From the IMG/VR virus record IMGVR_UViG_2639762987_000002: DNA of 64,000 nucleotides. One strand, given 5' to 3'. Shown piece by piece: positions 14,880 through 38,413 of the stretch. The position numbers and the translations under genes are program-made. This DNA comes from a virus (lineage: Duplodnaviria > Heunggongvirae > Uroviricota > Caudoviricetes). Below the pieces are notes generated by a model. It worked only from the letters and a program-made list of their open reading frames with translations, made no database searches and was not told where the DNA came from. Every line of letters starts with the position of its first letter. Position 1 is the stretch's first letter.

Positions 14880-15647
14880 TTATGCCGCGCTAACACTATG
14901 TTCAGTCCTAACCACCCCAACCTTCACAAAAGGGCTACCGTAGCTTGGTGGCTTCTTGATTAATTTGCCTACATACAGTTTTCTAATATGCTCATCGGCT
15001 ATTCTGCCAACAAATTCATAACGTTTTGTGTCGGGGCCAAGAGCTATATCCCTTGTAAAGTACTGCTGAGAACCGGCTTTGACCCAGCATTCAATCTGAT
15101 AAACTTCCATTATCAGCCCACCATATGTAGCGTAGGCATATTTGAGATTCTCGTCTCTTGGAACCTTTGCCCATACGCCACGCGTAGCTTCATATAATGC
15201 CAGAGCGGACATTCCTGACTTGTAGGTGCTGTTTAGCAGGAAGGCAAGACCGGCGTGCTCAGGAGCAATTTCAGTTTCCTCTTGCAGCACTAAGTGATGG
15301 TAGGCGTCCAGTGATATTCTGCCCATCATGGAACCACTTCCTCGTACCTTATTCGTAAGCTCTCCGACCCCCATAAGGTCGATGCATGTCGCCTCAACAA
15401 GTTTGGCTGTGGTTTCATCCATACCATGACGAAGTATATCTATGCCTAATTTTTTATTAGCCAAAAGTTCTTTGATCCGCATGGATTTGGGAGAGTCATC
15501 GGGATACTTGATGTGATCGAGACAACGAGTCGATTTGCCTTTTCCTATGTAAAACGGTCTTTTCATCTTGTCTTCTGTATCATAGAGACAGTAAACATAG
15601 TATTTAGCCTTATCCAATGATCTCGCGTATACCGATAAATCGTCCAT
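14880..15647 (-). CDS. GIY-YIG family nuclease
   Basis: 255 aa on minus strand; N-terminal YYVYCLYD...PFYIGKGKSTR matches the GIY-YIG motif; C-terminal domain unassigned. Confidence 0.6.
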   Translation of the reverse strand: MDDLSVYARSLDKAKYYVYCLYDTEDKMKRPFYIGKGKSTRCLDHIKYPDDSPKSMRIKELLANKKLGIDILRHGMDETTAKLVEATCIDLMGVGELTNKVRGSGSMMGRISLDAYHHLVLQEETEIAPEHAGLAFLLNSTYKSGMSALALYEATRGVWAKVPRDENLKYAYATYGGLIMEVYQIECWVKAGSQQYFTRDIALGPDTKRYEFVGRIADEHIRKLYVGKLIKKPPSYGSPFVKVGVVRTEHSVSAA

Positions 15648-15765
15648 TATTGCATCTCTTTGCTACTGACTAATGCGTTCTATTTTACACATAAGTTTTT
15701 AATCAATTTAACAGGCTCAAAGTGTAGAGCTTCTGGGCGTCTAAGACGACAAGTTATGCCTGTTT

Positions 15766-15822
15766 CTGTATATATAAATAATAAGTAACTTATTAAATAT
15801 ATACGGAAGCAGGTCTTTTAAA
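15766..15822. promoter_or_regulatory. AT-rich element with TATAAATA core flanked by imperfect inverted repeats (copy A)
   Basis: CTGTATATATAAATAA...TATACGGAAG(C)AGG; second copy at 61957-62015; lies in divergent intergenic region. Confidence 0.4.
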
Positions 15823-15929
15823 AGACACCACCAGAACAACTCCCTTCCGTTTCCACTTCCAAAAACTGCCACCAGTCGCTATCATCCGCTCATTGTGATA
15901 AGTAAGTAACTACCTACCAGGTGAGCCAC

Positions 15930-16670
15930 ATGAGCCAAATCTTTTTCGATACCATCGACAACGACCAGTACGACTTCATGACAGAGTGGAATACCGCTGT
16001 TATGGACAAGTGGGTCGCTGAAAACATTGGTTTGTCGCGCTGTAAAGACGAGGCTGAACTCTTCGAGACGAAGTGGTTTGATTACCGCGACATGCATCCT
16101 CTCATGGCCACCTGTCTTTTTACGGAGGCATACAAACGTCAGTACTCAAATATCATGCTGACGCACGGTCGCGAACACTTTGAAACAGCTCCGTTCACCA
16201 CCGGGTTAAAACGCCTGCCTTATCAGGAGTTGTCGACTGCCAATAAAACGTCGCTATGGAAAGCACGCCAGTTTGCGGATCGCTATTGCTGCTCATACGA
16301 CTACTTTATCTCCACCGTTCTTTCCGCAGCTGCACGACGGCTGTGGGACAAGCTGCCGCGCCCACAGCATTTGTGGCAGCCAGAACTGATTGAGATATTT
16401 GAAGAGAAATTAGCCAGACGCGCAACAACCCGTCTGGATGACTCTCTGGTTAGCTTTAAGCATATGGGAGACATGCAGTTCAACCCGATTCAGGAAAGCT
16501 ATTTTGAGTGGATTCTGGAGCGTTTGCGCACCATCCCTCGCAGCAAGCGCATACGCGCAATTTTCTCCGCTATCTGGCTAATGGAAATCGTTCCAGAGCG
16601 CCTTATTTCCGCCCACTTTCCAGAAGAACTGGAAGAAGCACGGCGGTTTATTGATCCCCTATCTAATTAA
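15930..16670 (+). CDS. Hypothetical protein
   Basis: RBS AGGTGAG before ATG 15930 (ORF track begins GTG 15921); no motif recognised. Confidence 0.5.
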   Translation: MSQIFFDTIDNDQYDFMTEWNTAVMDKWVAENIGLSRCKDEAELFETKWFDYRDMHPLMATCLFTEAYKRQYSNIMLTHGREHFETAPFTTGLKRLPYQELSTANKTSLWKARQFADRYCCSYDYFISTVLSAAARRLWDKLPRPQHLWQPELIEIFEEKLARRATTRLDDSLVSFKHMGDMQFNPIQESYFEWILERLRTIPRSKRIRAIFSAIWLMEIVPERLISAHFPEELEEARRFIDPLSN

Positions 16671-16681
16671 CTAATACTAGA

Positions 16682-16694
16682 AAACAATTTGTTT
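16682..16694. promoter_or_regulatory. Palindrome AAACAAtTTGTTT upstream of helicase gene
   Basis: Perfect half-sites AAACAA/TTGTTT 20 nt upstream of the ATG. Confidence 0.45.
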
Positions 16695-16713
16695 AAAAAA
16701 CAAAGGAAAGCAC

Positions 16714-18054
16714 ATGACCGAACTTTGCCATACAGGACGCGGGCTGTCCGAAGAGTTTGATGAAGATTTCCAGAACAGACTGACGGCATATTTTTGTCGT
16801 GATCACGAGTTTCTTACTCGTGCGGGAGATCTGGTTGTGCCTAGCCAGTTTGCCAATGCGGCCAATGCCATATTGGTTAATATGGTTTCGGGCTATTACC
16901 GTATGTACAAGAGCGCGCCCTCTTCATCTGCAATTCTGGATATGCTTAAGCGTGCGAAACGCGATAAGACTATCCGTGAGGAACTATTCGCCGATGTTGT
17001 TGCTGCGTTTAAGCGCATTCTTGCAGAAAAATTGTCCGATACCTCGTACATGGTTGACCAGGTATCAACCTTCGCAAAAAGTGTAGCGTTTGATGATGCT
17101 CTGATTAAGGCTGCTGAACTGAAAGAGAAAGGCGACTTTCAGGGGGCGATGGCAATCATGGCCAAGGTTCAGCAGATTGGATCGAACGAAGCGACCGGAA
17201 TCTATGACTACTACACCTCCGCAAGTGAGCGATTGAAAGCGCGTGAATATGAGGCTTCAGAGGAGTATGTACCAAACAGTATTACAACTGGACTCCCTCT
17301 TCTCGATAGGTTGCTGTACCAAAAAGGCTGGGCAAAGCGCGAAATGGTGCTCTTCATGGGGTTCGCTAAATCCGGTAAATCGACCGCAATGGGTGAGTTT
17401 TCCATAAACGCAACGCTTGCTGGCTACAATGTTCTGTATCTCTCGCTGGAGGTTCACACCACCATTTTATCCGACCGTTTTGATGCAAGATTGTCGGAGA
17501 CAGAAATGTCCAAGCTGGTGGAACGGCGCGATGAGGTTCATCGTAAGTTGGCAGAGTTGGGAGCCACGAAGGGGATTGGTAGTTTGTGGGTGGTTGAGCG
17601 TCCGTCAGGAAGTATGTCACCGGCAGATCTGGACCGTATGCTTAACAGCATGAAAGCCAACGGCATGGTACCTGACATGGTTGTTGTCGACTACGCAGAT
17701 TTGATGCGTGCCAGTTATGACCTTCGTGATGATCGCGCCAACATTCGTAGTATCTACACCGATTTACGTGCTCTTTATGACAAGCATAACGTTGCTGGGA
17801 TCACGGCATCGCAGACAAACCGTGAAGGTGGCGCGTCAGAAGTTGCCACAATGATGCACGCTGCCGACAACATCGAAAAAGTACGTATTGCTGACCTGGT
17901 AATAACGATCAACAAAACCGAAGAAGAAGAAGCGAAAGGAGAGGCTCGTCTCTACTTTGCCGGTTCACGTAACCAGCAGGGAGGGATCAGCATTCGCGTT
18001 AAACAAAACCTCGAACAAATGCGCTTCATTGAGCGAATCTTAGACGTTACCTAA
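16714..18054 (+). CDS. Replicative DNA helicase (DnaB-like, RecA-fold)
   Basis: 446 aa; Walker A GFAKSGKST, Walker B-like VVVDYADLM; adjacent to primase. Confidence 0.6.
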   Translation: MTELCHTGRGLSEEFDEDFQNRLTAYFCRDHEFLTRAGDLVVPSQFANAANAILVNMVSGYYRMYKSAPSSSAILDMLKRAKRDKTIREELFADVVAAFKRILAEKLSDTSYMVDQVSTFAKSVAFDDALIKAAELKEKGDFQGAMAIMAKVQQIGSNEATGIYDYYTSASERLKAREYEASEEYVPNSITTGLPLLDRLLYQKGWAKREMVLFMGFAKSGKSTAMGEFSINATLAGYNVLYLSLEVHTTILSDRFDARLSETEMSKLVERRDEVHRKLAELGATKGIGSLWVVERPSGSMSPADLDRMLNSMKANGMVPDMVVVDYADLMRASYDLRDDRANIRSIYTDLRALYDKHNVAGITASQTNREGGASEVATMMHAADNIEKVRIADLVITINKTEEEEAKGEARLYFAGSRNQQGGISIRVKQNLEQMRFIERILDVT

Positions 18055-18135
18055 AAAATAAGCGTGGAGAACACCTCCACGCTTGATTCATTGGTGAAAC
18101 AACTTTTCTTTTGCCAAACCACAAAAGAAAAACAC

Positions 18136-19317
18136 ATGAGCCTTTATGTTATATCAACATTTAGGTTGGTCACAATATTGCCTGTTAAAAGTGGAATTAT
18201 CGTGAGCGAGCTGAAAGAGCTAATTACCGAATTAGATTTTGAACAATGGTTGGATACTGAAGGTATCGTTTATCGACGTGGAGGCGTGAGTACTCGCGGT
18301 CGTGAAGTGAATATCAAGGAGTGTCCGGTATGCGGCAGCTCCAACTGGAAGGTATATTTCAATCTGACCAGTGGCGTCGGTAAATGCTTCGCTGGTGATC
18401 ATCCCGAAGAGATTCAGTTCAATAAGCTGGTCTTCCTCAAGCACTACAGCGGCAAATCACGACGACAGTTCGAGGAATATGTGCAGAACGCCCTTCTTTC
18501 CCAGGGGTGGGCACCAAAGAAAGAAGAGCTAGTGCTTGCAAGCACAGTCGAGTTAGAGGAGCCAGTTGCACTCCCTCGTCATTACGAGCTTCCTATAGAT
18601 GGCCGTCTTCCAGACTATCTGGTTGAACGAAACATATCGCCTGAAATGGCAAAGTATTTTGACCTACGATACTGCGTCGAAGGCAAGCACGCCTATGTAG
18701 ATCCGTATACAGATCAGGTTAAAGGACAGATATTCGATATGCGAATACTGATACCGGTTTACGATCTGGATGGGGTAATGAAGACATTTCAGGGACGAGA
18801 CATTACCGGTACAGCAGAACGCCGCTACCTCTTTCCTATGCAACTTCCAGCTTCAGGTAAGTTTCTCTACAACGGCCATAATGCAGTCGGCAAACAGACT
18901 GTAGTTGTCTGTGAGGGGGCGTTCGATGTTATGGGGGTTAAACGAGCTATTTTTGACGAAGAAACATTACGTGATTACGTGGAACCAATAGGAACGTTCG
19001 GGATGCATCTATCTGGTAACACCACTCAGGATGCAGAAGATCAGTTAGGCGCGTTCCTGACGCTCAAGGCGCGTGGATTACGTAATGTGATCATGATGTG
19101 GGATAGTGAAAAGCAAGCTATACGCAACACGATGGCCGCAGCCAGGCGACTGACCAGTATCGGTCTTAATGTCAAAGTTGCGTGTTTGGGTGAGGAAGGA
19201 CTCGACCCGGGCGGTGCAACGCCAGAACAAATTATCAAAGCCTATTATCGGGCAAAACCGTATACCAAACAGTTGGAGTTGCAAAGCAAGGTTTTGGGCA
19301 TTAAGGCTCTATCATAA
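18136..19317 (+). CDS. DNA primase (DnaG-like zinc finger + TOPRIM)
   Basis: ATG 18136 preceded by AAAAGAAAAACACATG; CPVCGSS...GKCFAGDH zinc motif; VVVCEGAFDVMG and MMWDSEKQ TOPRIM-like motifs. Confidence 0.7.
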   Translation: MSLYVISTFRLVTILPVKSGIIVSELKELITELDFEQWLDTEGIVYRRGGVSTRGREVNIKECPVCGSSNWKVYFNLTSGVGKCFAGDHPEEIQFNKLVFLKHYSGKSRRQFEEYVQNALLSQGWAPKKEELVLASTVELEEPVALPRHYELPIDGRLPDYLVERNISPEMAKYFDLRYCVEGKHAYVDPYTDQVKGQIFDMRILIPVYDLDGVMKTFQGRDITGTAERRYLFPMQLPASGKFLYNGHNAVGKQTVVVCEGAFDVMGVKRAIFDEETLRDYVEPIGTFGMHLSGNTTQDAEDQLGAFLTLKARGLRNVIMMWDSEKQAIRNTMAAARRLTSIGLNVKVACLGEEGLDPGGATPEQIIKAYYRAKPYTKQLELQSKVLGIKALS

Positions 19318-19392
19318 CAATCACCTTTAAAATAAGTAGATGATTACTTATCTTTCTGTGAGAATACTTTCATCTGTTAGCTAGGAGTTGGT

Positions 19393-20169
19393 ATGAAAGA
19401 CGAAATTCAGAAATTAGCCTGCGACATCATTGATAAAACTGGTTTAGAAATCAGCGAGAGCAATCGACTAGACATCATTGAAAAAGCGGTAAAAACAGCA
19501 ATGGATCATATCGCCACTCGTTTGGTCGAGATCCCGCTACCGGGGCTACCTTATCTGAAGGTTAAGTTACACGTATGGGGTGAACCTTCTTGTGCACGAC
19601 GTTCTGCATTAGTTGTTTTTATTAGCAAAGAAAACCCGCTCAGTCTTAAAGTGCAGGTTGGAGCATGGCTTGATGGCAGAGTGATCTACACAAATACCGT
19701 TTTTTGTCTTTCAAACGATGAAACTATTGAAGCGGCCATTCAAGAAGCAGTTCTAGCAATGCGCAGCAGCGGTTTGATGAAGAATAACTACGAAGAGTAC
19801 TTGCGTTCGATAAGTGGTGAAAAGACATTATCTCTGAAAGCAGATTTCGTTACCCCGAAAAATCTGTTGGAAGTCTTGCTTAATAAAGGGGCTAATGATG
19901 CCGTAAATGTAATCAGAGAGAGTGAGTATGCGTCTCTTTGCGACATGTGCAAAAGCCAGTTGGATCTGGTGCATATCGTTATTGATGCTGGGAAGGCATG
20001 TGATGGCGTAATGGCGGAATTTGCTTGGAAGGTGGTCAGGATTGCTAACGAATTACCGATGATAGAGCAAGAGGCTAAATCATACGCCACCAATCATGTC
20101 ACAGAGCTTCTTGCCCCCTATCGCTTAGAAAGCAATCAGCGCAAGATGATTAGCTGGGGAAGTTGGTAA
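19393..20169 (+). CDS. Hypothetical protein
   Basis: 258 aa; RBS AGGAG. Confidence 0.5.
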   Translation: MKDEIQKLACDIIDKTGLEISESNRLDIIEKAVKTAMDHIATRLVEIPLPGLPYLKVKLHVWGEPSCARRSALVVFISKENPLSLKVQVGAWLDGRVIYTNTVFCLSNDETIEAAIQEAVLAMRSSGLMKNNYEEYLRSISGEKTLSLKADFVTPKNLLEVLLNKGANDAVNVIRESEYASLCDMCKSQLDLVHIVIDAGKACDGVMAEFAWKVVRIANELPMIEQEAKSYATNHVTELLAPYRLESNQRKMISWGSW

Positions 20170-20224
20170 TCTCTCCGCGCGTCGTTTTTTACGCAAATAA
20201 CGATAGGTAAGTACAAGATTATTT

Positions 20225-20707
20225 ATGGCGGTAGTTGTGAAAGCTGACTTGTCAAAAATCCCCTCTATTTCAGGAAATAATGGTTATTCACTTCGTTGTG
20301 AGGAAGTAAAGATAAACGGTGAGTCGGCATATTGCAGCTACTCCGTTTGCCAGCACACCATTCTTGCCTTCAAAGAAAACCGTCTTCCTCGAACTTCATT
20401 CCAGTCGTGCGCAACCGCTATCAAAGCAGGCAAATGCAAGGCGTTAAAAATGATGGTTGAAGAGATTCGTAAAGGAGAATCTCTGTATTTCGAAGATATG
20501 ACCGTGCTCATTAAGGAGGTTGAAGAACGGAATAAACAAGCCAGAACTTTAAAACGAAAACGTGACAGTGTAACGATTAATGGCATGGTTAAGAAGAGCA
20601 CCACATCACAAACAGCGATCACTGACGTGTATGCGGCGTTGCTTGAAGAAACAACAAAAGAAACACATGAGCAAATCGATCAACATATGGAGGTAAAACA
20701 ACAATGA
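20225..20707 (+). CDS. Hypothetical protein
   Basis: 160 aa; several Cys; overlaps ligase start. Confidence 0.45.
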   Translation: MAVVVKADLSKIPSISGNNGYSLRCEEVKINGESAYCSYSVCQHTILAFKENRLPRTSFQSCATAIKAGKCKALKMMVEEIRKGESLYFEDMTVLIKEVEERNKQARTLKRKRDSVTINGMVKKSTTSQTAITDVYAALLEETTKETHEQIDQHMEVKQQ

Positions 20708-22026
20708 AAAAGTTGATCGCACTTAAGCATAAGCTGGACGAAATGAAAGCTATGGGAACCAATGCAAAAAAAGAGGCATTGGCCAACATGGATGACTTCG
20801 AGCAAAGCATGGTTTCATTGATGCTCAACCCTTTCATCCGTTTTGGGGTAAAGAAATACAAAGTGGCAGAGCCGCTTAGTGAGTCCATCCCAAGTGACGA
20901 AAAAGCCATTGATGTACTGAATAAGCTGGCCTCTCGCGAGCTAACGGGGAACGCAGCAATAGCAGCTGTTGAGTCTATCGTGGCGTCAATGTGCGCCGAT
21001 GGGCAGGACGTGTTCCGTCGTTTCCTCTTAAAAGACCCGAAAGCAGGTGTTGGGATTAGCCTATGCAACAAGGTTTTTGAAAATCCCATTCCGAAATTCG
21101 AGGTGCAGCTGGCGTCACCGTATAAAGAAAAAGGCGACAAATACCCCTTCAAGCCAAATCCTAAAGCAAAATGGCCGATGATTGGCAGTCTTAAGCTCGA
21201 TGGTTTGCGAGTAATTTGCGAGGTTATTGTTGACGAGGAAGAGGTTAACTTCCTTTCTCGTACTGGTAATCCAATCACGTCTCTCGATCACCTAAAGCCA
21301 GCAATGCTCGAATTAGGCAAACTTTCAGGCCACAAACACATCTTCTTCGATGGTGAAGGAACTGCCGGTTCATTTAACCAGTCCGTATCTGCATTGCGCA
21401 AAAAGAACGTGCAGGCAATTGGCGCTATTTATCATGTTTTCGACTTCTTCCTACCGGAATGGCGAGCACAGGCTAAATCCAAAGAGTATGCAAAGACAGG
21501 TATGAAGCTGAAAGAGCGCCTGGCTATGCTGGTGGCGTTGTTCAAAAACGATCGCAGTGAAGGCTACACACAAGACATTCACCTGCATCCGTTCTATATC
21601 ATCCATAGCCACGAAGACTTCATCGAACGCTTCATGAAACGCCTGGACGATAACGAAGAAGGGGAGATGGGCAAAGATCCGAACTCTGTTTACGAGTTTA
21701 AACGTACCCGCAGCTGGTGGAAGTTAAAAGACGAAGATTCAGAAGATGGTGAAATTATCGACTTTGAGCCGGGCGACCCGGACTCTGGTTTTGCCAACAC
21801 ACTTGGAAAAATTGTTATTCGTCTTGAAAACGGCGTCATCGTTCGTGCGAGCGGCATTAAGCATAAATATCTGGATGAGTTCTGGAACAACAAAGAGAAG
21901 TACCGTGGTCGTATTGTCGAGGTTCATTGTCACGAGAAAACACCGGACGGCAGCTTACGCCACCCACGACTGAAATGGCCGCGTTGCTTACGCGATACAG
22001 AAGATCGAATCGGAGATAAAGAATGA
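20704..22026 (+). CDS. ATP-dependent DNA ligase
   Basis: 440 aa; adenylation motif I SLKLDGLR (KxDG). Confidence 0.7.
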   Translation: MKKLIALKHKLDEMKAMGTNAKKEALANMDDFEQSMVSLMLNPFIRFGVKKYKVAEPLSESIPSDEKAIDVLNKLASRELTGNAAIAAVESIVASMCADGQDVFRRFLLKDPKAGVGISLCNKVFENPIPKFEVQLASPYKEKGDKYPFKPNPKAKWPMIGSLKLDGLRVICEVIVDEEEVNFLSRTGNPITSLDHLKPAMLELGKLSGHKHIFFDGEGTAGSFNQSVSALRKKNVQAIGAIYHVFDFFLPEWRAQAKSKEYAKTGMKLKERLAMLVALFKNDRSEGYTQDIHLHPFYIIHSHEDFIERFMKRLDDNEEGEMGKDPNSVYEFKRTRSWWKLKDEDSEDGEIIDFEPGDPDSGFANTLGKIVIRLENGVIVRASGIKHKYLDEFWNNKEKYRGRIVEVHCHEKTPDGSLRHPRLKWPRCLRDTEDRIGDKE

Positions 22027-22202
22027 TGCTCGGCTGGATGATTGCATTTTTAGCAGTTGGTTTTTTCATAGGTATTGTGGTGATGTCCAGTTGCATCAAT
22101 GACTACATTAAAAGCGGTGTTATAGAAAGACGCGGTCGTATTTATCGCATTGTAGAAATAACCAACACCCTGAAGGAGATTAAGGATGATCGTATTAAGT
22201 AA
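22023..22202 (+). CDS. Small membrane protein, paralog family member A
   Basis: 59 aa, below ORF-track cutoff; ATGA overlap with ligase stop; TM helix then RGRIYRIVEIT motif. Confidence 0.4.
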   Translation: MMLGWMIAFLAVGFFIGIVVMSSCINDYIKSGVIERRGRIYRIVEITNTLKEIKDDRIK

Positions 22203-22401
22203 ACGGGAGAAGGAAACGCTTCATGAAATCAGTAAGTGGCCGGAGTTCCCTGAGTACTGGAAGCCTAAAACGCGAGCTAAGTTAGAGCGTTTAGGGTTGG
22301 TTGCAAACGTTTCTGAAACGTGGTGTTCGGCCAACTACCAGTTAACTGATAAAGGGAAAGTATTGCTACAGCAATTAGTAGAATCAGGAGTGTTAAAATG
22401 A
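22186..22401 (+). CDS. Hypothetical small protein
   Basis: 71 aa; RBS AAGGAG. Confidence 0.45.
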   Translation: MIVLSKREKETLHEISKWPEFPEYWKPKTRAKLERLGLVANVSETWCSANYQLTDKGKVLLQQLVESGVLK

Positions 22402-22550
22402 TTCCATACATCTCATTAGCTTTTATGGGTGGCTTCCTTATCGGCTTCGGCATCTGTCGTGATTTAATTAAGCAGGAACTTAAAACCAAAACACTGTGCA
22501 TCGGAAAGCGTGTGTATCGGGTAGTTCATGAAACAAAGGTGAAAAAATGA
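22398..22550 (+). CDS. Small membrane protein, paralog family member B
   Basis: 50 aa, below ORF-track cutoff; ATGA overlaps at both ends; TM helix then GKRVYRVVHET motif paralogous to 22023-22202. Confidence 0.4.
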   Translation: MIPYISLAFMGGFLIGFGICRDLIKQELKTKTLCIGKRVYRVVHETKVKK

Positions 22551-22837
22551 GCAATTTAACTTCTTGGGAATGGTGGTTGGCCACCTATTTCTTAGCGGCC
22601 GGAGTCGCATTCGCCTTTTACGTAGGTCAGTTAGTCGTAAAACTGTTGCTGATTAAATTTGCTAGTCATAAACGTATCGATGATGGTCTGTGGCGTCTTG
22701 GCACCCTAGTGGAAACTCGCTACGGGCAACTTAAGGAGAACGAAACCATTACTATCCAAGCGAAACGATTCACTGCCACCATTACAAGAACACCTAGTCG
22801 TAGAGTGGCCTTGATCAAAAAAGTCACAACCGAATAA
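22547..22837 (+). CDS. Small membrane protein
   Basis: 96 aa; N-terminal TM helix; start overlaps upstream stop. Confidence 0.45.
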   Translation: MSNLTSWEWWLATYFLAAGVAFAFYVGQLVVKLLLIKFASHKRIDDGLWRLGTLVETRYGQLKENETITIQAKRFTATITRTPSRRVALIKKVTTE

Positions 22838-23039
22838 AAACATATTGATAAGTATTTACTTACTTATCTTTTGTGTATAAGATGACTTTGTTTTCGTTGA
22901 GACGCGACTGTTTGAACTTAAATACAAGTGCAAACGAAGAAGTCTATCTGGCAGTAGCCTAATAAGCCAAACACCAGCGAGGTCAGTTTCCAGCCTCGTT
23001 ACCGAAATGGGACACACTGAGCGAGTGTGATTGCAGAAC

Positions 23040-23420
23040 GCAGGAGGGAACATTCATGTTCCCTCCGATGAAGTAACAGAATGGGCGGTTGGTATATTTT
23101 CAACTCCATATGACTCCCGGATTCTTAGCCACTGACCGCCCATCCTGTTACGTCATTTTGTTCAATTATGTCGTTTATACTGGGTTAAAAAGCGGCGACG
23201 TAGCCCGGCTGGTATGGTTAGCCAGCACACAACGTTGAGGCCATTACATTTTTATCAATTCTAAGGTTCTATTCACAGAGATACCGGCGAGCGTTGATAT
23301 GTAACATGTTGGGCAAACATTCAATCGGAGTAGTGGCCTCAACGTTGTGAAGACGGGATTGTTGTGTAGGTTTAACCACTGTTGCCATTGGTGCCTGTTT
23401 TCACAACAAATGATTCCATA
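23040..23420 (+). ncRNA. Candidate structured non-coding RNA region upstream of tRNA cluster
   Basis: No ORF over 60 codons; perfect hairpin 23043-23066; long-range complementarity 23076-23089 with 23135-23148 and 23228-23244 with 23343-23359. Confidence 0.3.
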
Positions 23421-23615
23421 CATCACATTGTATAAATTACAAAGTAGGTGCTGTCCTCAGAAACATCATCTACTTAAAGATTTTGCCTTCTACTATTGAG
23501 CGAAGTCGAAAGCGTCTGGCACTAACGAAAAGTGCAAGTAGCGGTGCGTTTCCTGGCAGAAACTAAACCGTCGCGATTGGCACTGTTGAGTAATAAATAC
23601 TGGCAGTGCTGAATT

Positions 23616-23690
23616 GATGGTGTAGCTCAGCGGTAGAGCAGTTGGCTGTTAACCAACTGGTCGGTGGTTCGAATCCACCCACCATCGCCA
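23616..23690 (+). tRNA. tRNA-Asn (anticodon GTT)
   Basis: Manual fold: acceptor GATGGTG/CACCATC, anticodon loop CTGTTAA, T-loop TTCGAAT, 3' CCA. Confidence 0.75.
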
Positions 23691-23695
23691 ATTTA

Positions 23696-23782
23696 GGGGA
23701 GTTAGTCCGTAGAGGTAGCGGTGTAGACTGTAAATCTACTGTCATGGCGACTCGGGTGGTTCGACTCCATCACTCCCCACCA
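23696..23782 (+). tRNA. tRNA-Tyr (anticodon GTA), long variable arm
   Basis: 87 nt; acceptor GGGGAGT/ACTCCCC, anticodon loop CTGTAAA, T-loop TTCGACT, 3' CCA. Confidence 0.65.
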
Positions 23783-23786
23783 AATT

Positions 23787-23862
23787 GCCGGTTTAGCTCA
23801 GTTGGTAGAGCGCCTGCCTTGTAAGCAGGATGTCAGCGGTTCGAGTCCGTTAACCGGCACCA
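23787..23862 (+). tRNA. tRNA-Thr (anticodon TGT)
   Basis: 76 nt; acceptor GCCGGTT/AACCGGC, D-loop AGTTGGTAGA, anticodon loop CTTGTAA, T-loop TTCGAGT, 3' CCA. Confidence 0.8.
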
Positions 23863-24079
23863 ACACAACAGGAAAGAGCATTGAAAACCGCCGAGACTGC
23901 CCTGTTTTAAGCGTAAGTCCGTGCAAACGTCATACAGTGCTCTTTTCGTTGTGGTTGATGCGCAGACTGATGCGCGGAAAGAAATGCCCCAGCGACACAC
24001 GAGGCGAGTTCACACACTGCAATGCAGTCAGTAGCCGGGGTCGCTAAGCCGGAGATCAGTACCGGTAACCACAACAATT

Positions 24080-24166
24080 GGAGAGTAGGGAGCATGGTGC
24101 TCAAGCGGTCTTGAAAACCGTCCCATTGTGCAAACGATGATGGTTCGATTCCATTACTCTCCGCCA
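24080..24166 (+). tRNA. tRNA-Ser (anticodon TGA), long variable arm
   Basis: 87 nt; acceptor GGAGAGT/ACTCTCC, anticodon loop CTTGAAA, T-loop TTCGATT, 3' CCA. Confidence 0.65.
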
Positions 24167-24320
24167 GACACAGCGTTGAGCGGTTTGGCCTTTTAATCAA
24201 CTCGATTAAGACTCCGCTAACATAAACCAGACCGCTCAACGCTGTGATAGATAATTACGGCAGACGTTCTTAACCATAGCTTGCTAACATCCTAGCAACA
24301 CTTTTTTCAGCGCAAAATTC

Positions 24321-24343
24321 AAAGGGGCTTCGGCCCCTTTTTT
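24321..24343. terminator. Bidirectional rho-independent terminator
   Basis: AAAGGGGC-TTCG-GCCCCTTT with A-run before and T-run after; sits between tRNA cluster and the end of a minus-strand gene. Confidence 0.8.
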
Positions 24344-24358
24344 GTTGAACAGTGCAAT

Positions 24359-25621
24359 TTACTTTGCATAGTCGCCCAATTTTAATATTTCGCGCTTATA
24401 TTCATTAACCATGCTACTGGATTCAGTATAAATTCGATTTAAAAGATTATCGTTATCTTTATTTTCATTTATCTTAATTAGTGCTAATTTATATTCATAG
24501 TCATCAAATGCCACAATTAAATGGTGGCCTGGGATTATATCTTCGTCACTCTTAAAGTATATATCTTCAAGTATGTAATCTAGTTGATTAGATTTTCTTT
24601 TCTCGATGTAATCTTCAGCCATAGCTATTACATCATTCCTGTCATTTAACCTGTTTTTTTCGGAAGGCACATCTTCGTAATGTTGCACGATTGAACAACC
24701 AATAAGGCGTGGGATGTAAACGTCAAAATGAGTAACTCTATCATTCGCGGTTTTAAGTAGTTCCTCAAAGTAGTTTCTTACATGTAAAGGCAACTTCTCA
24801 AAGTAATCATTAATTATAGGAGAACAAGGAGTTTTATAATTCATAAGAACCGACGGTACGAGCTTTGGGTGTCGAAACATCCAGTCCCTTTTAACGTCCG
24901 ATGGAACATAATAACTTTTAATGATATTATCAAAATAATTTATCATTCGAGATTTGAATATTTTGTTGAATCTAAGGTTTATGAATGTATCCAGATAAGG
25001 CATATTTGAATAAGCATCATCAAAAAATATTTCTTCATTGAAGAAATCATATTTATTTAATAAATAAAACAGTTTTTCCGAATTAATATGTTCACAATAA
25101 TCGATTTTTAATCCAAAGATAGCAATGATCAACTTCATCTGAGGTGGGATTTTAAAAATTAATTGTGACACATACGCTCTTTTTTCCTTGAGACATTCCC
25201 CATCAATATAAAATGAACCATCCACATACTCAAATATATTAATAATATGCTTCACATACTGTATTACCTCATGCTGTCTTACCAATGGATAATATAGTCT
25301 ATGTAACTCATCGCTGTTTAAATTAATTTTGTGTTTATCGATAATTTGTTTTGCAAGAAGACATAACTCATCATGTTGATTTAATAAGGAATCAAACCAT
25401 TGTTTAAATGCACTCTTTCGCATTTCGAACAATGATTCAGTTGTTAATTGAAGGGCTGAAAAAGCCGCTTTTGCACTTTTTCTCGCTTCGTAGGCATTCC
25501 ATGCTGTTGCTATAAAAGCAAATGCTGTAGCCAATGTTCCAACAGTTTGACCATTTAAAACAACCCAATCCCAAAAAATGACGGTGAGCAGTAGTATAAT
25601 AATGAAAATTAAAAAAGGCAT
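24359..25621 (-). CDS. AT-rich membrane-anchored protein of unknown function (candidate exclusion/defence gene)
   Basis: 420 aa on minus strand; two N-terminal TM helices; strongly AT-rich by eye relative to flanks; own terminator. Confidence 0.6.
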   Translation of the reverse strand: MPFLIFIIILLLTVIFWDWVVLNGQTVGTLATAFAFIATAWNAYEARKSAKAAFSALQLTTESLFEMRKSAFKQWFDSLLNQHDELCLLAKQIIDKHKINLNSDELHRLYYPLVRQHEVIQYVKHIINIFEYVDGSFYIDGECLKEKRAYVSQLIFKIPPQMKLIIAIFGLKIDYCEHINSEKLFYLLNKYDFFNEEIFFDDAYSNMPYLDTFINLRFNKIFKSRMINYFDNIIKSYYVPSDVKRDWMFRHPKLVPSVLMNYKTPCSPIINDYFEKLPLHVRNYFEELLKTANDRVTHFDVYIPRLIGCSIVQHYEDVPSEKNRLNDRNDVIAMAEDYIEKRKSNQLDYILEDIYFKSDEDIIPGHHLIVAFDDYEYKLALIKINENKDNDNLLNRIYTESSSMVNEYKREILKLGDYAK

Positions 25622-25713
25622 GTATGTATTTCACTCTACTAACTATAAAATATTAGGCTAATGTTAACCAAACAATGCCTTAATTAATAGATTGATCGAG
25701 GCTTTAATAGCTT

Positions 25714-25753
25714 TATAATGCAGACCGCAAAGATAGGTATGCACATACCTATC
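25714..25753 (+). promoter_or_regulatory. Promoter with TATAAT -10 followed by perfect palindrome GATAGGTATG-ca-CATACCTATC
   Basis: TATAAT at 25714-25719; palindrome 25732-25753 belongs to the dispersed GATA(A/G)GTA...TAC(C/T)TATC family. Confidence 0.5.
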
Positions 25754-25795
25754 TTCTTTGTAAGTAAAGTTACATATCAATTCTACGAGGTCACA

Positions 25796-26041
25796 ATGAC
25801 GATCACTATCTACGGACGAGATAACTGCTCATACTGCAAACGTGCGGTCGAGCTGGCGAAGCAACTAAAGGGACATGGCTACGGTGATTATGAGTACATC
25901 GACATCACCACTGCCGGTATCGACAAGGAAAAACTAAGTGAAATTGTTGGTAAACCGGTAGAGACTATCCCCCAAGTGCTGATCGATGGCCAACCGATTG
26001 GCGGATACACAGAACTGGCTGCATACGTCAGCACCCTCTGA
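25796..26041 (+). CDS. Glutaredoxin/NrdC-like thiol-disulfide protein
   Basis: 81 aa from ATG 25796 with RBS GAGGT (ORF track begins 25718); active-site CSYC; C-terminal GG motif. Confidence 0.65.
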   Translation: MTITIYGRDNCSYCKRAVELAKQLKGHGYGDYEYIDITTAGIDKEKLSEIVGKPVETIPQVLIDGQPIGGYTELAAYVSTL

Positions 26042-26046
26042 TTTTA

Positions 26047-26068
26047 ACGGCTCACAGGAGCCGTTTTT
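26047..26068 (+). terminator. Rho-independent terminator
   Basis: ACGGCTC-ACAG-GAGCCGT hairpin followed by TTTTT. Confidence 0.75.
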
Positions 26069-26251
26069 ATTCCCACCAAACTCACTCCCGTTTCCCTTAA
26101 AATTCAAAAAACAACGTCAAAATGATTCCATACCTACTATGTATGGAATCATTGCTGAAAATGAGTTACTTTTACTCTTGATCCTATAAGAATCTATGCC
26201 TAATATACTGTTTACTTATACAGTGCATCGGCGTAACTCGGTGATTGTCAT

Positions 26252-27355
26252 ATGAAAAATAGCTTTGACAGAGCACGCGCTGCGGAGAACACCTCAAAAG
26301 AGGCGATAGAGTATCTCGAAAGAGCATCTCAAATGCAGGCCGTTATGATCTCGCAGGTTAGCAATGACATGAGATTCTCGGACGCATTCATGTTATTCAC
26401 TCGCTTATCTCTGCTGATAACCAGACGTCGGCCAGAGATCGCTGTTCATTGTATTTTGATACATGTTTTGCCGCACATTGCCGATGTAAAAGTAAGTGAC
26501 ATTAATAGGTTCATGGTGAACCAACTGGTCAACCCACTAATACTGGATGGCAAAATTGTTATGGGCCGCCGCGTTTTCTCTCTGATGAAGCAGTTCCTTA
26601 GCTGGTGCGCCTTCCAGGGGATGATAGACGTGTCACCGTTAAACGATATGTCACTAAACAAAGTTGCCGGTGGCGCAAAGCCCACACCTCGCGAGCGGAA
26701 GCTGACCGACGCAGAGGTATGGGTGTTCTGGAATATATGGGACTACTTCAATGTGTGCGCTGGTACAAAATGGGCGGCCAGGCTGTGTCTTGTATCCGCA
26801 AGACGACCTGACGAAGTACTGCGGGCTAAAAAAAGTGAGTTCAATCTTAAGCGTGGGGTTTGGAATCAAGGCAAGAGGAACAAATCTGCCCGTGAGCATT
26901 CGCTGCCTTTAAGCACATTAATGCGCACATGTATTGAAGAGTTGTTCGAATACGGTAAAGGCAGCCAGTGGCTCGTGCCTTCGAATAAAAAAATCGGGAA
27001 AGACCTTCCTATGTCTAAAGTGGCAATAGCCCAGGCATTACGTCGTATCCTGGAACGACCAGAACTGATGGAGCTTGAGCCATTTACACCCCGAGACTTG
27101 CGCCGTACTGCGCGTAGTTACTTCCCAGCATTAGGCATAAGCCAGGAGGTATCACGTAAAATCATGAACCACAGTCTTGAGGGGATAGATCGAGTCTACG
27201 ACCGGCACGATTATATGGACGAGATGCGAGACGCCTTAGAAAGTTTCTCGACGTACATCGCATCAATCGTAGAGCAACCGGATTTAGACGAAATTGACCA
27301 CAAATTTAAGGGAGATCGTCTATCAACAGAGCTTATTCGTGTAAATTTTTCATAG
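26252..27355 (+). CDS. Tyrosine site-specific recombinase (integrase or resolution recombinase)
   Basis: 367 aa; C-terminal region with ARRPDEVLR, LRRTARSY, NHSLEG...YDRHDY resembling tyrosine recombinase boxes. Confidence 0.6.
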   Translation: MKNSFDRARAAENTSKEAIEYLERASQMQAVMISQVSNDMRFSDAFMLFTRLSLLITRRRPEIAVHCILIHVLPHIADVKVSDINRFMVNQLVNPLILDGKIVMGRRVFSLMKQFLSWCAFQGMIDVSPLNDMSLNKVAGGAKPTPRERKLTDAEVWVFWNIWDYFNVCAGTKWAARLCLVSARRPDEVLRAKKSEFNLKRGVWNQGKRNKSAREHSLPLSTLMRTCIEELFEYGKGSQWLVPSNKKIGKDLPMSKVAIAQALRRILERPELMELEPFTPRDLRRTARSYFPALGISQEVSRKIMNHSLEGIDRVYDRHDYMDEMRDALESFSTYIASIVEQPDLDEIDHKFKGDRLSTELIRVNFS

Positions 27356-27736
27356 AGACTTTATGGCCTCAACAACCTTTTGTGATGCGCCTTTCTCTTT
27401 ACCGAATCGCTCGTTATATGCAGCAAGAACCTGTTTTTCGTCCTCGTTAAGAGGAGCAGTGCCTTCTTTGTATAAAAATGCTGCGAGTTCGGGTTGGCGT
27501 TCTTCCAGCACCATCATCATAAGACGACTTGGCTCAATACCCAGTGCCAGCGCCAGCGGACGAACCTTATCGATAGGCAAAGGAATTTTGCCGCTTTTAA
27601 TTAAAGAAAGGTTGTTGGCGTTTTTATACCCAATTGTTTTGGCTATCTGGGCCTGGCTCATAGGTGAGGATTCAATCAACCCTGCGATAAAAGCAGCGTA
27701 GCGACTTTCTATAAATTCAATCTTGTTATCAGACAT
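27350..27736 (-). CDS. XRE-family helix-turn-helix transcriptional regulator
   Basis: 128 aa on minus strand; HTH segment SQAQIAKTIGYKNANNLSLIKSG; divergent from downstream operon. Confidence 0.6.
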   Translation of the reverse strand: MSDNKIEFIESRYAAFIAGLIESSPMSQAQIAKTIGYKNANNLSLIKSGKIPLPIDKVRPLALALGIEPSRLMMMVLEERQPELAAFLYKEGTAPLNEDEKQVLAAYNERFGKEKGASQKVVEAIKSL

Positions 27737-27767
27737 GGTTACAACCTTTGCGCGTTCAATTCTCTCT

Positions 27768-27781
27768 GGTAAGTGCTTACC
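27768..27781. promoter_or_regulatory. Operator-like palindrome GGTAAGTGCTTACC in divergent promoter region of the XRE regulator
   Basis: Perfect palindrome; same core as the site at 51759-51779. Confidence 0.45.
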
Positions 27782-27987
27782 GATATTACATCAAAGGTTA
27801 GGGTTGTAAAGCTATTATCATTTTTTTCGATAGGCACTTAAAAGACCGGTTAAAGGCCATTGCACGGAGAAAAATTAGCCCAAAATAGGTAAGAAAATTA
27901 ACTTGCATATGATATGAATGTATTCAGTATTGATACAAATTTTAGTAGTATTCCTTACCATAGTATAAGTTAGAATGGATTGATTGA

Positions 27988-28200
27988 ATGAACACCACTA
28001 TTTCCAGCCTAATCGCTCTTGAGATCGGACACGTACAGAAATTAGCTGATGAGTGTGTAGCTGACATCCTCACCGATCTACCGAATGAGCAGATTCAGGT
28101 TGGTGTGAATGACACAACTGGCTTTATATTCGAACTTAACAACAAACGCTTCACGCTTCTCAATACCGGCTCCGAGTCTTTAGCCGTCAGAATCTGTTAA
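27988..28200 (+). CDS. Hypothetical small protein
   Basis: 70 aa; first plus-strand ORF after divergent region; followed by hairpin 28214-28248. Confidence 0.4.
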   Translation: MNTTISSLIALEIGHVQKLADECVADILTDLPNEQIQVGVNDTTGFIFELNNKRFTLLNTGSESLAVRIC

Positions 28201-28298
28201 CCCCTCTTCTCCCTGCGCGAATGGCTTAGTTCCCTGTTCGCGCAGTGCTACATTAAACACACTAGTAAATAATTTGTTTTCATAACAAAGGATTAGCC

Positions 28299-30407: not shown

Positions 30408-30502
30408 ACAAAACAGCCTTAACGATAAGTAACCACTTACGATAGATAATGATATATTTATATAAGAAGTTGAACGCTCATTAGAAAACAAAGGAAAAAC
30501 GC

Positions 30503-31738: not shown

Positions 31739-31740
31739 TC

Positions 31741-31944
31741 GTGCGTAAAGGATGTTTCGGCTCTCTTATCGCTGCTTCTGAAACTGGTAAGGCTTGTCTG
31801 GTGTGTCCAGACAAGCCCGATTGTCACCAATCAGCAAAAGAAGTTGCGATTTCGATGCATGGGAAGTTCGTAGGCTTCCCCAATGACAAAATCAAAAAAA
31901 CCAGAAAGGTAAAAACACATGAAGGCACTGATGGTTCGAACTGA
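31741..31944 (+). CDS. Hypothetical small Cys-containing protein
   Basis: 67 aa from GTG; overlaps dnaE start; weak. Confidence 0.25.
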   Translation: MRKGCFGSLIAASETGKACLVCPDKPDCHQSAKEVAISMHGKFVGFPNDKIKKTRKVKTHEGTDGSN

Positions 31945-35437: not shown

Positions 35438-35444
35438 TCCCATA

Positions 35445-35469
35445 AACATGGCCTCTATGGCCATGTTTT
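35445..35469 (+). terminator. Rho-independent terminator
   Basis: AACATGGCC-tctat-GGCCATGTT hairpin followed by T-run. Confidence 0.7.
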
Positions 35470-35562
35470 CCCTTATCCCCTCATATCCCCTATCCTCGAA
35501 CTCCTTGCCTTATCATCACAATGATATAATCAATATAAAATGATAAGTAAAAAGGAAAGCAC

Positions 35563-35994
35563 ATGATCACCGATATTTACGAGAAAATAATGTCTGATCT
35601 CGAGTTTGACCGAGACAATCTGGAGGAAGTCTGGCGTAGACAACCCCGCCTTTTAATGGAGTATGGCTCAAAACTCGCTCATGCAGAAAGAAGTGTCGCA
35701 GAGGCAAAACTTAACCTTGAAGCTGTTGAAGCAAAGCTATACGACACAGAGCGTAAGAACTTGAGTATGAACGGCATTAAGTTCAACGAGTCTGTACTGG
35801 ACGCTAAGGTTAAAACAAACCCACAGTATCTGTCTAAACGGCAGAAGTTGGATGAAGCACGGCACATCGCAGACATATACAAACATGCTGTCGCCGCCTT
35901 TTCGCATCGCCGAGACATGATCGTTCAGGCGTCAAAGATGGCCATCGTTGAATTAGAGCGATTAGGCTCTGAACGCTTTATTACTCCCCGTTGA
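35563..35994 (+). CDS. Hypothetical protein (coiled-coil)
   Basis: 143 aa; start context AAAAGGAAAGCACATG. Confidence 0.5.
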   Translation: MITDIYEKIMSDLEFDRDNLEEVWRRQPRLLMEYGSKLAHAERSVAEAKLNLEAVEAKLYDTERKNLSMNGIKFNESVLDAKVKTNPQYLSKRQKLDEARHIADIYKHAVAAFSHRRDMIVQASKMAIVELERLGSERFITPR

Positions 35995-36111
35995 TTTTTG
36001 ATAGATAATAAGTAAGTACTGATCTATCATTTAACAGCTCGAAAGAGCCACGAATGAACGAAAGCCCAACGCGCATAGCGCCATCGGCCAAATCACAACA
36101 AGGAGAAACAC

Positions 36112-37140: not shown

Positions 37141-37156
37141 TCCCATTACGTGACCA

Positions 37157-37185: not shown

Positions 37186-37200
37186 GGAAGGAATGTACCG

Positions 37201-38411: not shown

Positions 38412-38413
38412 TC

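Follow-up and report, generated by a model that had tools for sequence, protein, structure and literature searches.

Do the two very short open reading frames that follow a DNA ligase gene in the stretch of DNA analyzed here (64,000 nucleotides, hereafter the window) encode proteins, are these proteins related to one another, and what might they do? An earlier note had described the run 22023-22837 as a cluster of tiny, paralogous and translationally coupled membrane proteins, and the coordinates and translations that it gave for frames of 59 and 50 aa proved exact. Their products are referred to here as p59 (MMLGWMIAFLAVGFFIGIVVMSSCINDYIKSGVIERRGRIYRIVEITNTLKEIKDDRIK), the A-type micro-protein, and p50 (MIPYISLAFMGGFLIGFGICRDLIKQELKTKTLCIGKRVYRVVHETKVKK), the B-type micro-protein; the proteins encoded between and after them are p71 and p96. 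The best overall explanation, and on balance a probable one, is that p59 and p50 represent real, paralogous membrane micro-protein genes whose products work together with p96.

Table 1. Features of the micro-protein locus and its surroundings, with positions in the window.
Feature	Position	Strand	Basis and remarks
ATP-dependent DNA ligase gene	20704..22026	+	Pfam DNA_ligase_A_M, E 5.8e-13
Direct repeat, left copy (16 bp, imperfect)	22012..22027	+	GGAGATAAAGAATGAT; Shine-Dalgarno motif and ATGA junction
p59, A-type micro-protein, 59 aa	22023..22202	+	PHROG 4381; homologues; dN/dS; hydropathy
Direct repeat, right copy	22175..22190	+	GGAGATTAAGGATGAT; p59/p71 junction
p71, 71-aa protein	22186..22401	+	PHROG 4054, E 2e-45; 17-nt overlap with p59, 4-nt overlap with p50
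p50, B-type micro-protein, 50 aa	22398..22550	+	PHROG 6302; homologues; dN/dS
p96, predicted 96-aa single-pass membrane protein	22547..22837	+	PHROG 4507, E 2e-58; synteny
Four tRNA genes (Asn, Tyr, Thr, Ser)	23616..24166	+	ARAGORN; downstream of the cassette, same strand
First strong intrinsic-terminator-like hairpin past the cassette	24321..24340	+	8-bp stem with 5 GC pairs, then a T-run

Genomic context

The window is an SSU5-like phage-plasmid of E. coli. Over the kilobase holding the micro-protein locus, an E. coli plasmid is 100% identical to it and the phage-plasmid Cyrano 98.6% identical. Phage-plasmids of the SSU5 type are widespread among clinical Escherichia, Salmonella, Klebsiella, Enterobacter and Yersinia. 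Homologues of the ligase gene carry the label DNA ligase in Cyrano, in SSU5 and in RefSeq plasmids. Within the helicase-primase-ligase operon, which serves replication, no large gene comes after the ligase gene; the p59 start overlaps its stop codon, and the micro-protein genes lie at the distal end. Elements with the micro-protein family measure about 104-112 kb, and the family comes after the ligase every time. No promoter-like sites were found across 15000-24500, nor was a strong terminator found ahead of 24321, and the four tRNA genes downstream probably share the cassette transcript. In distant relatives, the micro-protein genes adjoin anti-defence-type genes (Tad2-like, Acb2/Tad1 and Lar).

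p59 and p50 as genuine genes

Both proteins match an existing protein family over their full length: p59 matches PHROG 4381 (SSU5_045-like; residues 1-59 on profile positions 1-59 of 59, E 1.1e-39) and p50 matches PHROG 6302 (SSU5_047-like; residues 1-50 on positions 1-50 of 50, E 1.4e-36). Homologues of p59 form 40 clusters, with 64-98% identity between orthologs; those of p50 form 30 clusters, with 54-98% identity and an invariant GKRVYRxVHE, and 649 plasmid records match the p50 segment. In related genomes, where the earlier note had proposed to look, both frames are kept across elements of Escherichia, Salmonella, Klebsiella, Enterobacter, Citrobacter and Yersinia. Compared with relatives at a dS of about 0.9-2, dN/dS amounts to 0.09-0.17 for p59 and 0.17-0.22 for p50, indicating purifying selection on both. 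A conserved second ATG at 22026, which is the start used in SSU5 and RefSeq, would yield a p59 of 58 aa. The A/B family occurs only in SSU5-like phage-plasmids of Enterobacterales.

The frames might instead be open merely by chance, or form a non-coding spacer, in a stretch that is AT-rich and resembles intergenic DNA, given that both are very short and that p59 is unannotated in Cyrano, as is the p50 ortholog in pLAO4 and pLAO59. Such frames, however, would not be expected to show dN/dS values of 0.09-0.22 at near-saturated synonymous change, to remain intact in 84 loci of several genera, or to combine Shine-Dalgarno motifs and conserved overlaps with full-length PHROG matches. This possibility is effectively refuted and retains next to no probability, and comparative sequence evidence thus shows p59 and p50 to be real genes. 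They had been called unannotated, which holds for the records just named but not for SSU5 or the RefSeq plasmids, where both are present; WP_085949093.1 and WP_000613553.1 are annotated on the very plasmid that is 100% identical over the locus kilobase. Neither is therefore novel as a sequence, both being known as SSU5_045 and SSU5_047, as RefSeq hypothetical proteins and in the two PHROGs. What the comparison adds is that annotation is inconsistent between records, with p59 or p50 missed in some and a doubtful name given to p96.

The p59 copy is often cleanly deleted in relatives. Its gene is flanked by a direct repeat whose two copies are identical at 14 of 16 bases, and plasmid NZ_CP072690 carries an exact 163-bp deletion between the repeat copies. 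In this sense p59 is a module that can be excised cleanly, with its own ribosome-binding/ATGA junction as its boundary, and it illustrates how coupled operons can gain and lose tiny genes with the coupling unbroken. Natural variants in which p59 is missing, or in which p50 is truncated and p96 absent, exist as full-length elements of about 110-120 kb, from which it follows that the role of these proteins is not needed for plasmid maintenance.

Paralogy of p59 and p50

Pairwise similarity between p59 and p50 is modest (31% identity over 45 aa, BLASTP E 3e-5), and alignment scores are inflated by the hydrophobic helices. Their Smith-Waterman score of 53 was reached by none of 5000 whole-sequence shuffles, by 8 of 5000 when hydrophobic segment and tail were shuffled separately, and by 90 of 5000 (p ~0.02) when only the tails were compared. 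Profiles of the A and B families can be aligned over their whole length with no gap (hhalign E 9.6e-6, probability 83%), so that the resemblance seen in the earlier note withstands both types of alignment test. Moreover, among the 1133 six-frame open reading frames of the window, p59 and p50 are each other's best non-self profile match (E 0.008 and 0.005), the next matches having E > 0.2. In the gap-free merged alignment, R39, Y41 and R42 are invariant and G13 and G17 nearly so; the R-x-Y-R-x-V motif is the best-conserved part of both families.

Searching 1.84 billion proteins with a profile (E ≤ 0.001) yielded 24 representatives, all but one of 32-78 aa; the exception, a 238-aa repeat protein matching over 14 residues only, looks spurious. 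Some of the relatives are intermediate between the families: one of them (MMIPYI...RRRVYRVVEIT) joins a B-like N-terminus to an A-like C-terminus, and another bridging sequence ends in ...IKSGIVRFGNRVYRVVHET. These A/B intermediates fill the same genomic slot as p59 and p50. Single-copy forms with a B-like N-terminus and an A-like C-terminus were considered as deletion hybrids of A and B, an origin that was rejected because a hybrid formed by deletion from an upstream A gene into a downstream B gene would have the opposite termini.

Could the likeness be convergent or compositional, a matter of unrelated hydrophobic helices each followed by a basic tail? PHROGs files p59 and p50 in separate families, word-indexed searches with either did not retrieve the family of the other, and the tails-only shuffle reaches a p of only about 0.02. 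Against this stand the ungapped end-to-end profile alignment (E 1e-5), the reciprocal best matches in the window, the outcome of the segment-preserving shuffle, the same-slot intermediates and the invariant G, R, Y and R in the same columns, which make convergence highly improbable. The alignments thus show p59 and p50 to be true, anciently duplicated paralogs within one superfamily. PHROGs 4381 and 6302 are thereby united as one family, and synteny ties this family to p96, a further membrane protein.

Predicted topology and structure

As the earlier note had reported, each protein combines a predicted membrane helix with a downstream R-x-Y-R-x-V motif. In p59 the hydrophobic helix spans residues ~6-22 (22038-22088) and includes G13xxxG17, and the motif RIYRIVEIT occupies residues 39-47 (22137-22163); in p50 the helix spans residues ~4-20 (22407-22457) and includes G12xxxG16, with the motif RVYRVVHET at residues 38-46 (22509-22535). 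The mean Kyte-Doolittle hydropathy of the 17-residue hydrophobic stretch is 2.59 for p59 and 1.88 for p50, and 1.9-3.1 across the family. The family shares a common build: an uncharged N-terminus of 0-10 residues, a small-xxx-small (GxxxG) helix and a K/R-rich tail of ~30 residues with the invariant core R-h-Y-[RK]-h-V, where h is a hydrophobic residue. Family N-flanks carry 0-1 charges and C-flanks 6-10 K/R versus 3-8 D/E; in p59 and p50 the N-flank is uncharged (3-5 aa) and the C-flank K/R-rich. By the positive-inside rule, we infer that p59 and p50 are single-pass inner-membrane micro-proteins with the N-terminus outside and the C-terminus inside.

An AlphaFold2 model of p59 from the merged A and B alignment has a mean pLDDT of 70, with residues 1-20 forming a helix (pLDDT 79-88); the tail is drawn as a continuous helix at low confidence and is unreliable. 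A β-hairpin was considered for the tail (h-h-x-h / G-x / R-h-Y-R-h-V) and dropped, as the motif has its hydrophobic-moment maximum at 100-130 degrees, a helix-like value, even though its residues are mostly β-branched. Searches of Pfam, NCBIfam, PADLOC and PDB sequences with all four proteins offered no clue to function, giving only sub-threshold matches driven by the helices or by a winged helix-turn-helix (wHTH), and no PADLOC defence-system profile matched p59, p50 or p96.

p71 and p96

The description of the locus as a cluster of paralogous membrane proteins applies to p59 and p50 but does not extend to their neighbors. No hydrophobic segment was found in a hydropathy scan of p71, which has weak profile matches to HTH_45 and to the C-terminal wHTH of Csa3 (the Csa3/CARF region in PADLOC, at the wHTH level) and whose homologue in Cyrano is named 'putative transcriptional regulator'. 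As judged from these features, p71 is a soluble, weakly winged-helix-like protein and not a membrane protein.

p96 has a hydrophobic stretch at about residues 11-37 followed by a basic, predicted cytoplasmic tail, and its AlphaFold2 model, of low confidence (mean pLDDT 66), consists of a long helix and a short hairpin. In databases it carries the doubtful name 'C-type natriuretic protein'. It was considered as a third paralog and rejected: BLASTP gave no alignment at E ≤ 100, the hhalign probability was below 1% and the shuffle p exceeded 0.1. In loci that continue, an intact B-type or single-copy gene is directly followed by a p96-type gene, which usually overlaps it, and in L019, the only locus without a B copy, the order is A, p71, p96-type. 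With a micro-protein gene always ahead of the p96-type gene, synteny suggests that the micro-protein(s) and p96 form a working unit and probably act together.

Gene overlaps and expression

Every junction in the run had been described as an ATGA or similar overlap. Three of the four are 4-nt ATGA overlaps, namely ligase/p59 (a 1-nt TGATG overlap if p59 starts at 22026), p71/p50 and p50/p96, whereas p59 and p71 overlap by 17 nt. The p59, p71, p50 and p96 starts are preceded, at a distance of 5-7 nt, by Shine-Dalgarno-like GGAG, GGAG, AGGAG and AAGGTG, respectively. Across 84 related loci, stop/start overlaps and open frames are kept while start codons vary (ATGA, GTGA, TTGA, TGATG and TAATG forms): the junction between the B-type and p96 genes is ATGA in 66 loci, that between p71 and the B-type gene is ATGA in 45, TGATG in 24, TTGA in 3 and TAATG in 3, and the 17-nt overlap between the A-type gene and p71 recurs in 69. 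This pattern fits the translational coupling deduced earlier from the overlaps themselves. The gene ahead of the ligase, on the other hand, also overlaps the ligase gene by 4 nt (20707/20704); ATGA overlaps are common throughout the operon and hence not special to the micro-protein cluster.

In an LF82 lysogen (Cyrano) grown in LB, CYRAN_36-39 have log2(fpkm+5) values of 2.32-3.0, corresponding to about 0-3 fpkm, and they are not among the lysogen-expressed genes (PMC9928086, Table 1 and S1 Table). These near-zero transcripts suggest a role of the micro-proteins in the lytic or replicative program. In the literature on SSU5 phage-plasmids, no paper on these genes was found, the LF82/Cyrano transcriptome alone being informative. 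The distal position in the replication operon, together with the overlaps, likewise leads to the expectation that the genes are expressed with the replication genes and not in the quiescent lysogen.

Possible functions

Superinfection-exclusion and lysogenic-conversion proteins, which block incoming phage DNA or alter the envelope, include T4 Imm/Sp, P22 SieA and Cor/Llp-type proteins, and an exclusion-type role is frequent among small phage membrane proteins. That frequency, the accessory and variable presence of the genes and their anti-defence-type neighbors in distant relatives would speak for such a role here, but it appears unlikely in view of the near-zero Cyrano lysogen transcripts, which leave the genes outside the 13 lysogen-expressed morons (PMC9928086), and of their coupling to lytic replication genes. 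Exclusion in the early lytic phase, by analogy with T4 Imm, may apply. A membrane tether for lytic DNA replication in the manner of phi29 p16.7, its basic tails binding DNA, the ligase or p71, agrees with the basic character of the tails, with the wHTH-like protein encoded inside the cassette and with the placement of the family directly after the ligase gene, overlapping its stop codon, in all ligase-keeping lineages. We nevertheless consider it quite unlikely, as Pfam, PHROGs and PDB sequences yielded no likeness to DNA-binding or replication-organizer families, a B-type gene and p96 are retained in ligase-less elements (L009 and L016), and the tail is only ~30 residues long.

Very unlikely, in our assessment, are membrane-damaging toxins, whether type I toxin-like or holin-like, or a small lipoprotein in the case of p59. 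Although size and architecture recall Hok-, TxpA- and Fst-type toxins, the Pfam Hok/Gef, toxin and holin families give no match at E ≤ 1, and the overlaps embed the genes in an operon instead of the stand-alone gene with antisense RNA. p96 does match holin PHROG 2359 weakly (E 0.027), yet through its hydrophobic helix only (residues 8-34), and the cassette sits in a replication operon and not in a recognizable lysis cassette. The VVMSSC of p59 resembles a lipobox, and residues 20-24 fit the PROSITE lipobox pattern, but lipoprotein status was rejected since no K/R is found in the n-region ahead of this cysteine and the cysteine is not conserved: it is missing from the A-type members in L012 and L019, stands in a non-lipobox context (GFFCG) in L015, and in the B family is absent or misplaced relative to the lipobox.

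In the preferred explanation, that of real paralogous micro-proteins working with p96, the genes, each preceded by a Shine-Dalgarno motif, would be expressed via their stop/start overlaps, and the micro-protein(s) and p96 would assemble into a small hetero-oligomeric membrane complex. On the cytoplasmic side of the membrane, the basic tails of this complex would interact with a partner of host or phage origin, with p59, the A copy, as an optional extra. With low confidence, we propose an accessory early function aimed at the host membrane, for example the modulation of some membrane-bound process of the host or the tethering of replication to the membrane. A bolder and rather doubtful extension is that the micro-protein(s) and p96 constitute a membrane module of three components, specific to the SSU5-like lineage of phage-plasmids, whose function has no described counterpart in phages; formed only during lytic replication, such a membrane platform might, for instance, recruit the ligase or replisome or neutralize a membrane-bound host defence, and the R-x-Y-R-x-V tail would then represent a short interaction motif of a new type. 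Any function established for these proteins would extend the as yet short list of characterized phage micro-proteins.

Comparison with known systems

SSU5_045 and SSU5_047 of Salmonella phage SSU5 (WP_085949093.1 and WP_000613553.1) are direct orthologs of the same length in the same post-ligase position. In databases they stand as two separate, unrelated families of hypothetical proteins, whereas here they are joined as paralogs and tied to PHROG 4507. phi29 p16.7, a membrane-anchored organizer of phage DNA replication, resembles the predicted build of p59 and p50 in its N-terminal membrane anchor and basic cytoplasmic part, and its gene likewise lies among early/replication genes. It is longer (~130 aa) and contains a coiled coil as well as a defined DNA-binding domain that is dimeric, in contrast to the 50-59 aa and ~30-residue tail found here, and no p16.7-like similarity was found in Pfam, PHROGs or PDB sequences. 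Hok/Gef type I toxins likewise have ~50 aa, an N-terminal hydrophobic helix and a short polar tail, but their Pfam profile PF01848 does not match p59 or p50, and the tail, predicted to be cytoplasmic here, is periplasmic in Hok. MgrB and AcrZ of E. coli, Caulobacter SidA, phiX174 E and SPO1 gp56 are of the same size (30-90 aa) and also have a single helix; they act by contacting a larger membrane or membrane-proximal partner. These small bitopic regulators show no homology to p59 and p50, and several of them act mainly by the helix, whereas p59 and p50 have a conserved element in the tail (R-x-Y-R-x-V) in addition to the helix. By analogy, we consider contact with a larger partner the most likely mode of action for p59 and p50 as well.

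Cassette layout and junctions

The helicase-primase-ligase operon ends with a cassette of four short genes, named p59, p71, p50 and p96 by length in amino acids. Re-reading of the sequence returned the coordinates that an earlier note had assigned to p59 and p50, together with its shared motif (RIYRIVEIT in p59, RVYRVVHET in p50). That note also placed an ATGA or similar overlap at every junction, which is correct for three of them: ligase/p59, p71/p50 and p50/p96 are ATGA, whereas p59/p71 is a 17-nt overlap. Phage SSU5 and RefSeq start p59 at the second ATG (22026), and with that start the ligase/p59 junction becomes a 1-nt TGATG overlap. In gene order, GGAG, GGAG, AGGAG and AAGGTG precede the starts at a distance of 5-7 nt. 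Among 84 related loci the overlaps are kept despite start-codon changes and the ORFs are open. The junction of A-type (p59-like) genes with p71 is the 17-nt overlap in 69 loci and GTGA in 3, that of p71 with B-type (p50-like) genes is ATGA in 45, TGATG in 24, TTGA in 3 and TAATG in 3, and that of B-type genes with p96 is ATGA in 66. The p59 and p50 genes are co-located and linked by overlaps that fit translational coupling.

Features of the cassette region and of related loci
Feature	Element	Coordinates	Strand	Remark
DNA ligase gene	window	20704-22026	+	followed by the four short ORFs
p59	window	22023-22202	+	after ligase
p71	window	22186-22401	+	between p59 and p50
p50	window	22398-22550	+	between p71 and p96
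p96	window	22547-22837	+	last of the four
Imperfect direct repeat, 16 bp	window	22012-22027, 22175-22190		around p59; GGAGAT[A/T]AAG[A/G]ATGAT, 14/16 match
tRNA genes	window	23616-24166		Asn, Tyr, Thr, Ser
First strong terminator hairpin	window	24321-24340		after tRNA genes
420-aa ORF	window	24359-25621	-	N-terminal hydrophobic segment
p59 deletion	NZ_CP072690 (L003)	1610-1630
Altered cassette	vB_Kpn_1825-KPC53 (L008)	2574-3107
Ligase-p71 fusion	vB_KpnS_p4727 (L009)	2303-2551
B-type gene	distant metagenomic relative (L012)	6401-6559		TTG start
Genes downstream of cassette	distant relatives L010; L012; L016/L017	7962-8636; 9594-10381; 8168-8689

Coding constraint and paralogy

Codon-level constraint marks p59 and p50 as evidently real genes. 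Compared with relatives at a synonymous divergence of about 0.9-2, p59 has a dN/dS of 0.09-0.17 and p50 one of 0.17-0.22; p71 and p96 give similar values, and ligase 0.02. In related genomes the motif is conserved in both families and forms their best-conserved part, with RRGRIYRI nearly invariant in A type and GKRVYRxVHE invariant in B type.

The proposed paralogy of p59 and p50 was upheld, with good though not overwhelming statistics. Aligned by BLASTP, the peptides gave an E-value of 3e-5. In 5000 global shuffles their score was never reached; when hydrophobic segment and tail each kept their own composition, 8 of 5000 reached it, and with only the tails 90 of 5000 did. With hhalign, the A and B family profiles align end-to-end and ungapped (E 9.6e-6, probability 83%), and each profile, run on the window's 1133 six-frame ORFs, has the other ORF as its best non-self match. 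A search of 1.84 billion representative proteins with a merged A+B profile retrieved 24 representatives at E≤0.001, 23 of them 32-78 aa long; the remaining one, a 238-aa repeat protein matched on 14 residues only, looks spurious. The strongest argument for paralogy comes from intermediates among these matches, such as MMIPYI...LRRRVYRVVEIT, with a B-like N-terminus and an A-like C-terminus; another match is ...DWIKQDIKSGIVRFGNRVYRVVHET. In a 13-member alignment of all types the core is gap-free, with an invariant Gly in the helix and an invariant Arg and Tyr. Relatedness of p96 to p59 or p50 was not detectable by BLASTP, hhalign or shuffles.

Distribution and deletion variants

Over the kilobase around the cassette the window shares 100% identity with E. 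coli plasmid NZ_CP024264, 98.6% with phage-plasmid Cyrano (pLF82) and about 75% with Salmonella phage SSU5, and it is evidently an SSU5-like phage-plasmid. All family members with readable context lie in elements of about 104-112 kb, directly after ligase. Most loci have the order A-p71-B-p96; A-B-p96, single copy-p96, A-p71-p96 and p71-B-p96 also occur. What the loci share is one or more micro-protein genes with a p96-type membrane protein gene after them; the latter directly overlaps the B-type or single-copy gene where present. Exceptions are limited to contig ends and to one Klebsiella lineage that lost p96 and part of B in the same deletion and whose A copy is also without its helix after an in-frame loss.

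Two Klebsiella phages carry natural deletion variants. In vB_Kpn_1825-KPC53, an in-frame loss of the hydrophobic helix leaves 40 aa of A type, B is both truncated and fused, and p96 is missing. In vB_KpnS_p4727 an in-frame fusion joins the N-terminus of ligase to the C-terminus of p71, with loss of ligase, p59 and most of p71. B and p96 are retained despite ligase loss in this phage and in L016, a distant relative.

The p59 gene is accessory. Plasmid records with a DNA match number 355 for p59 versus 649 for p50 (about 92-101 versus 186 among close E. coli relatives, 8 versus 212 in Klebsiella); p59 is absent from about half of the close relatives in E. coli and from most of those in Klebsiella. 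The repeat bounding p59 consists of ribosome-binding site plus ATGA junction, and in E. marmotae plasmid NZ_CP072690 an exact 163-bp deletion between the repeats restores a ligase/p71 ATGA junction.

Expression and downstream neighbourhood

The cassette genes are silent in the lysogen. In the published LF82 transcriptome, CYRAN_36-39, the orthologs of ligase, p71, p50 and p96, have log2(fpkm+5) values of 2.32-3.0 in LB, essentially zero, reach a few tens of fpkm at most in other conditions, and do not belong to the set of 13 Cyrano genes that the lysogen expresses (PMC9928086). No sigma70-like promoter was predicted on either strand of 15000-24500, versus 15.0 ± 3.6 expected from dinucleotide-preserving shuffles, and the count in 24500-40000 is normal (20 versus 25.2 ± 4.9). 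Together with the terminator hairpin after the tRNA genes, this fits one long unit switched on with replication; replication operon, small genes and tRNAs may thus form a single transcription unit purged of promoters and ending at that hairpin.

tRNA content is variable among otherwise close relatives: Cyrano has three tRNA genes at this place, SSU5 and pJN2-26 one each. The 420-aa ORF beyond them, without a match in a Pfam search, is possibly a variable gene of accessory or defence type; Cyrano carries different genes there (hypothetical protein and glutaredoxin). Distant relatives have NinH, Lar (restriction alleviation), Tad2-like and Acb2/Tad1-hairpin genes downstream of the cassette, which marks the region distal to ligase as an accessory, anti-defence neighbourhood.

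Protein features and proposed role

From their sequences, p59 and p50 are micro-proteins with one hydrophobic helix: in each, an uncharged N-flank of 3-5 residues leads into a single strongly hydrophobic stretch, and a tail rich in K/R follows. The layout of p96 is generally alike; hydropathy analysis found no such stretch in p71. Because of the positive-inside rule, p59 and p50 would be oriented N-out/C-in. AF2 draws the tail as a helix with low confidence; its hydrophobic moment is helix-like, yet its composition is rich in beta-branched residues.

We propose that the helices would self- or hetero-associate through the conserved GxxxG motif, that one or both micro-proteins may form a working complex with p96, as synteny suggests, and that the basic R-x-Y-R-x-V tail would act on the cytoplasmic side of the membrane in the lytic or replicative phase. 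Candidate cellular roles are the modulation of a host membrane process, exclusion early in the lytic phase, and the tethering of replication to the membrane.

Comparison with catalogued proteins

Pfam, NCBIfam, PHROGs, PADLOC and PDB sequences indicated no known functional family for the cassette proteins. Full-length PHROG matches are all to function-unknown families (p59, 4381; p71, 4054; p50, 6302; p96, 4507). RefSeq calls many p96-family members 'C-type natriuretic protein', a name without backing from any Pfam or NCBIfam model that looks like a propagated misnomer. The earlier note's observation was confirmed and its interpretation was right in part: the ORFs that it called unannotated are listed in RefSeq (WP_085949093.1, WP_000613553.1) and in SSU5 (SSU5_045, SSU5_047), but p59 is missed in Cyrano, as is the p50 ortholog in pLAO4 and pLAO59, though intact in both. 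In L012, a B-type gene starting inside a TTGA overlap went uncalled by the gene caller. Tiny members of the family are probably under-counted in databases. p59 and p50 are thus catalogued yet uncharacterised phage micro-proteins, to which we add the link between the A and B families, p96 as an apparently obligate neighbour save for the Klebsiella exception, and p59 as a cleanly excisable module.
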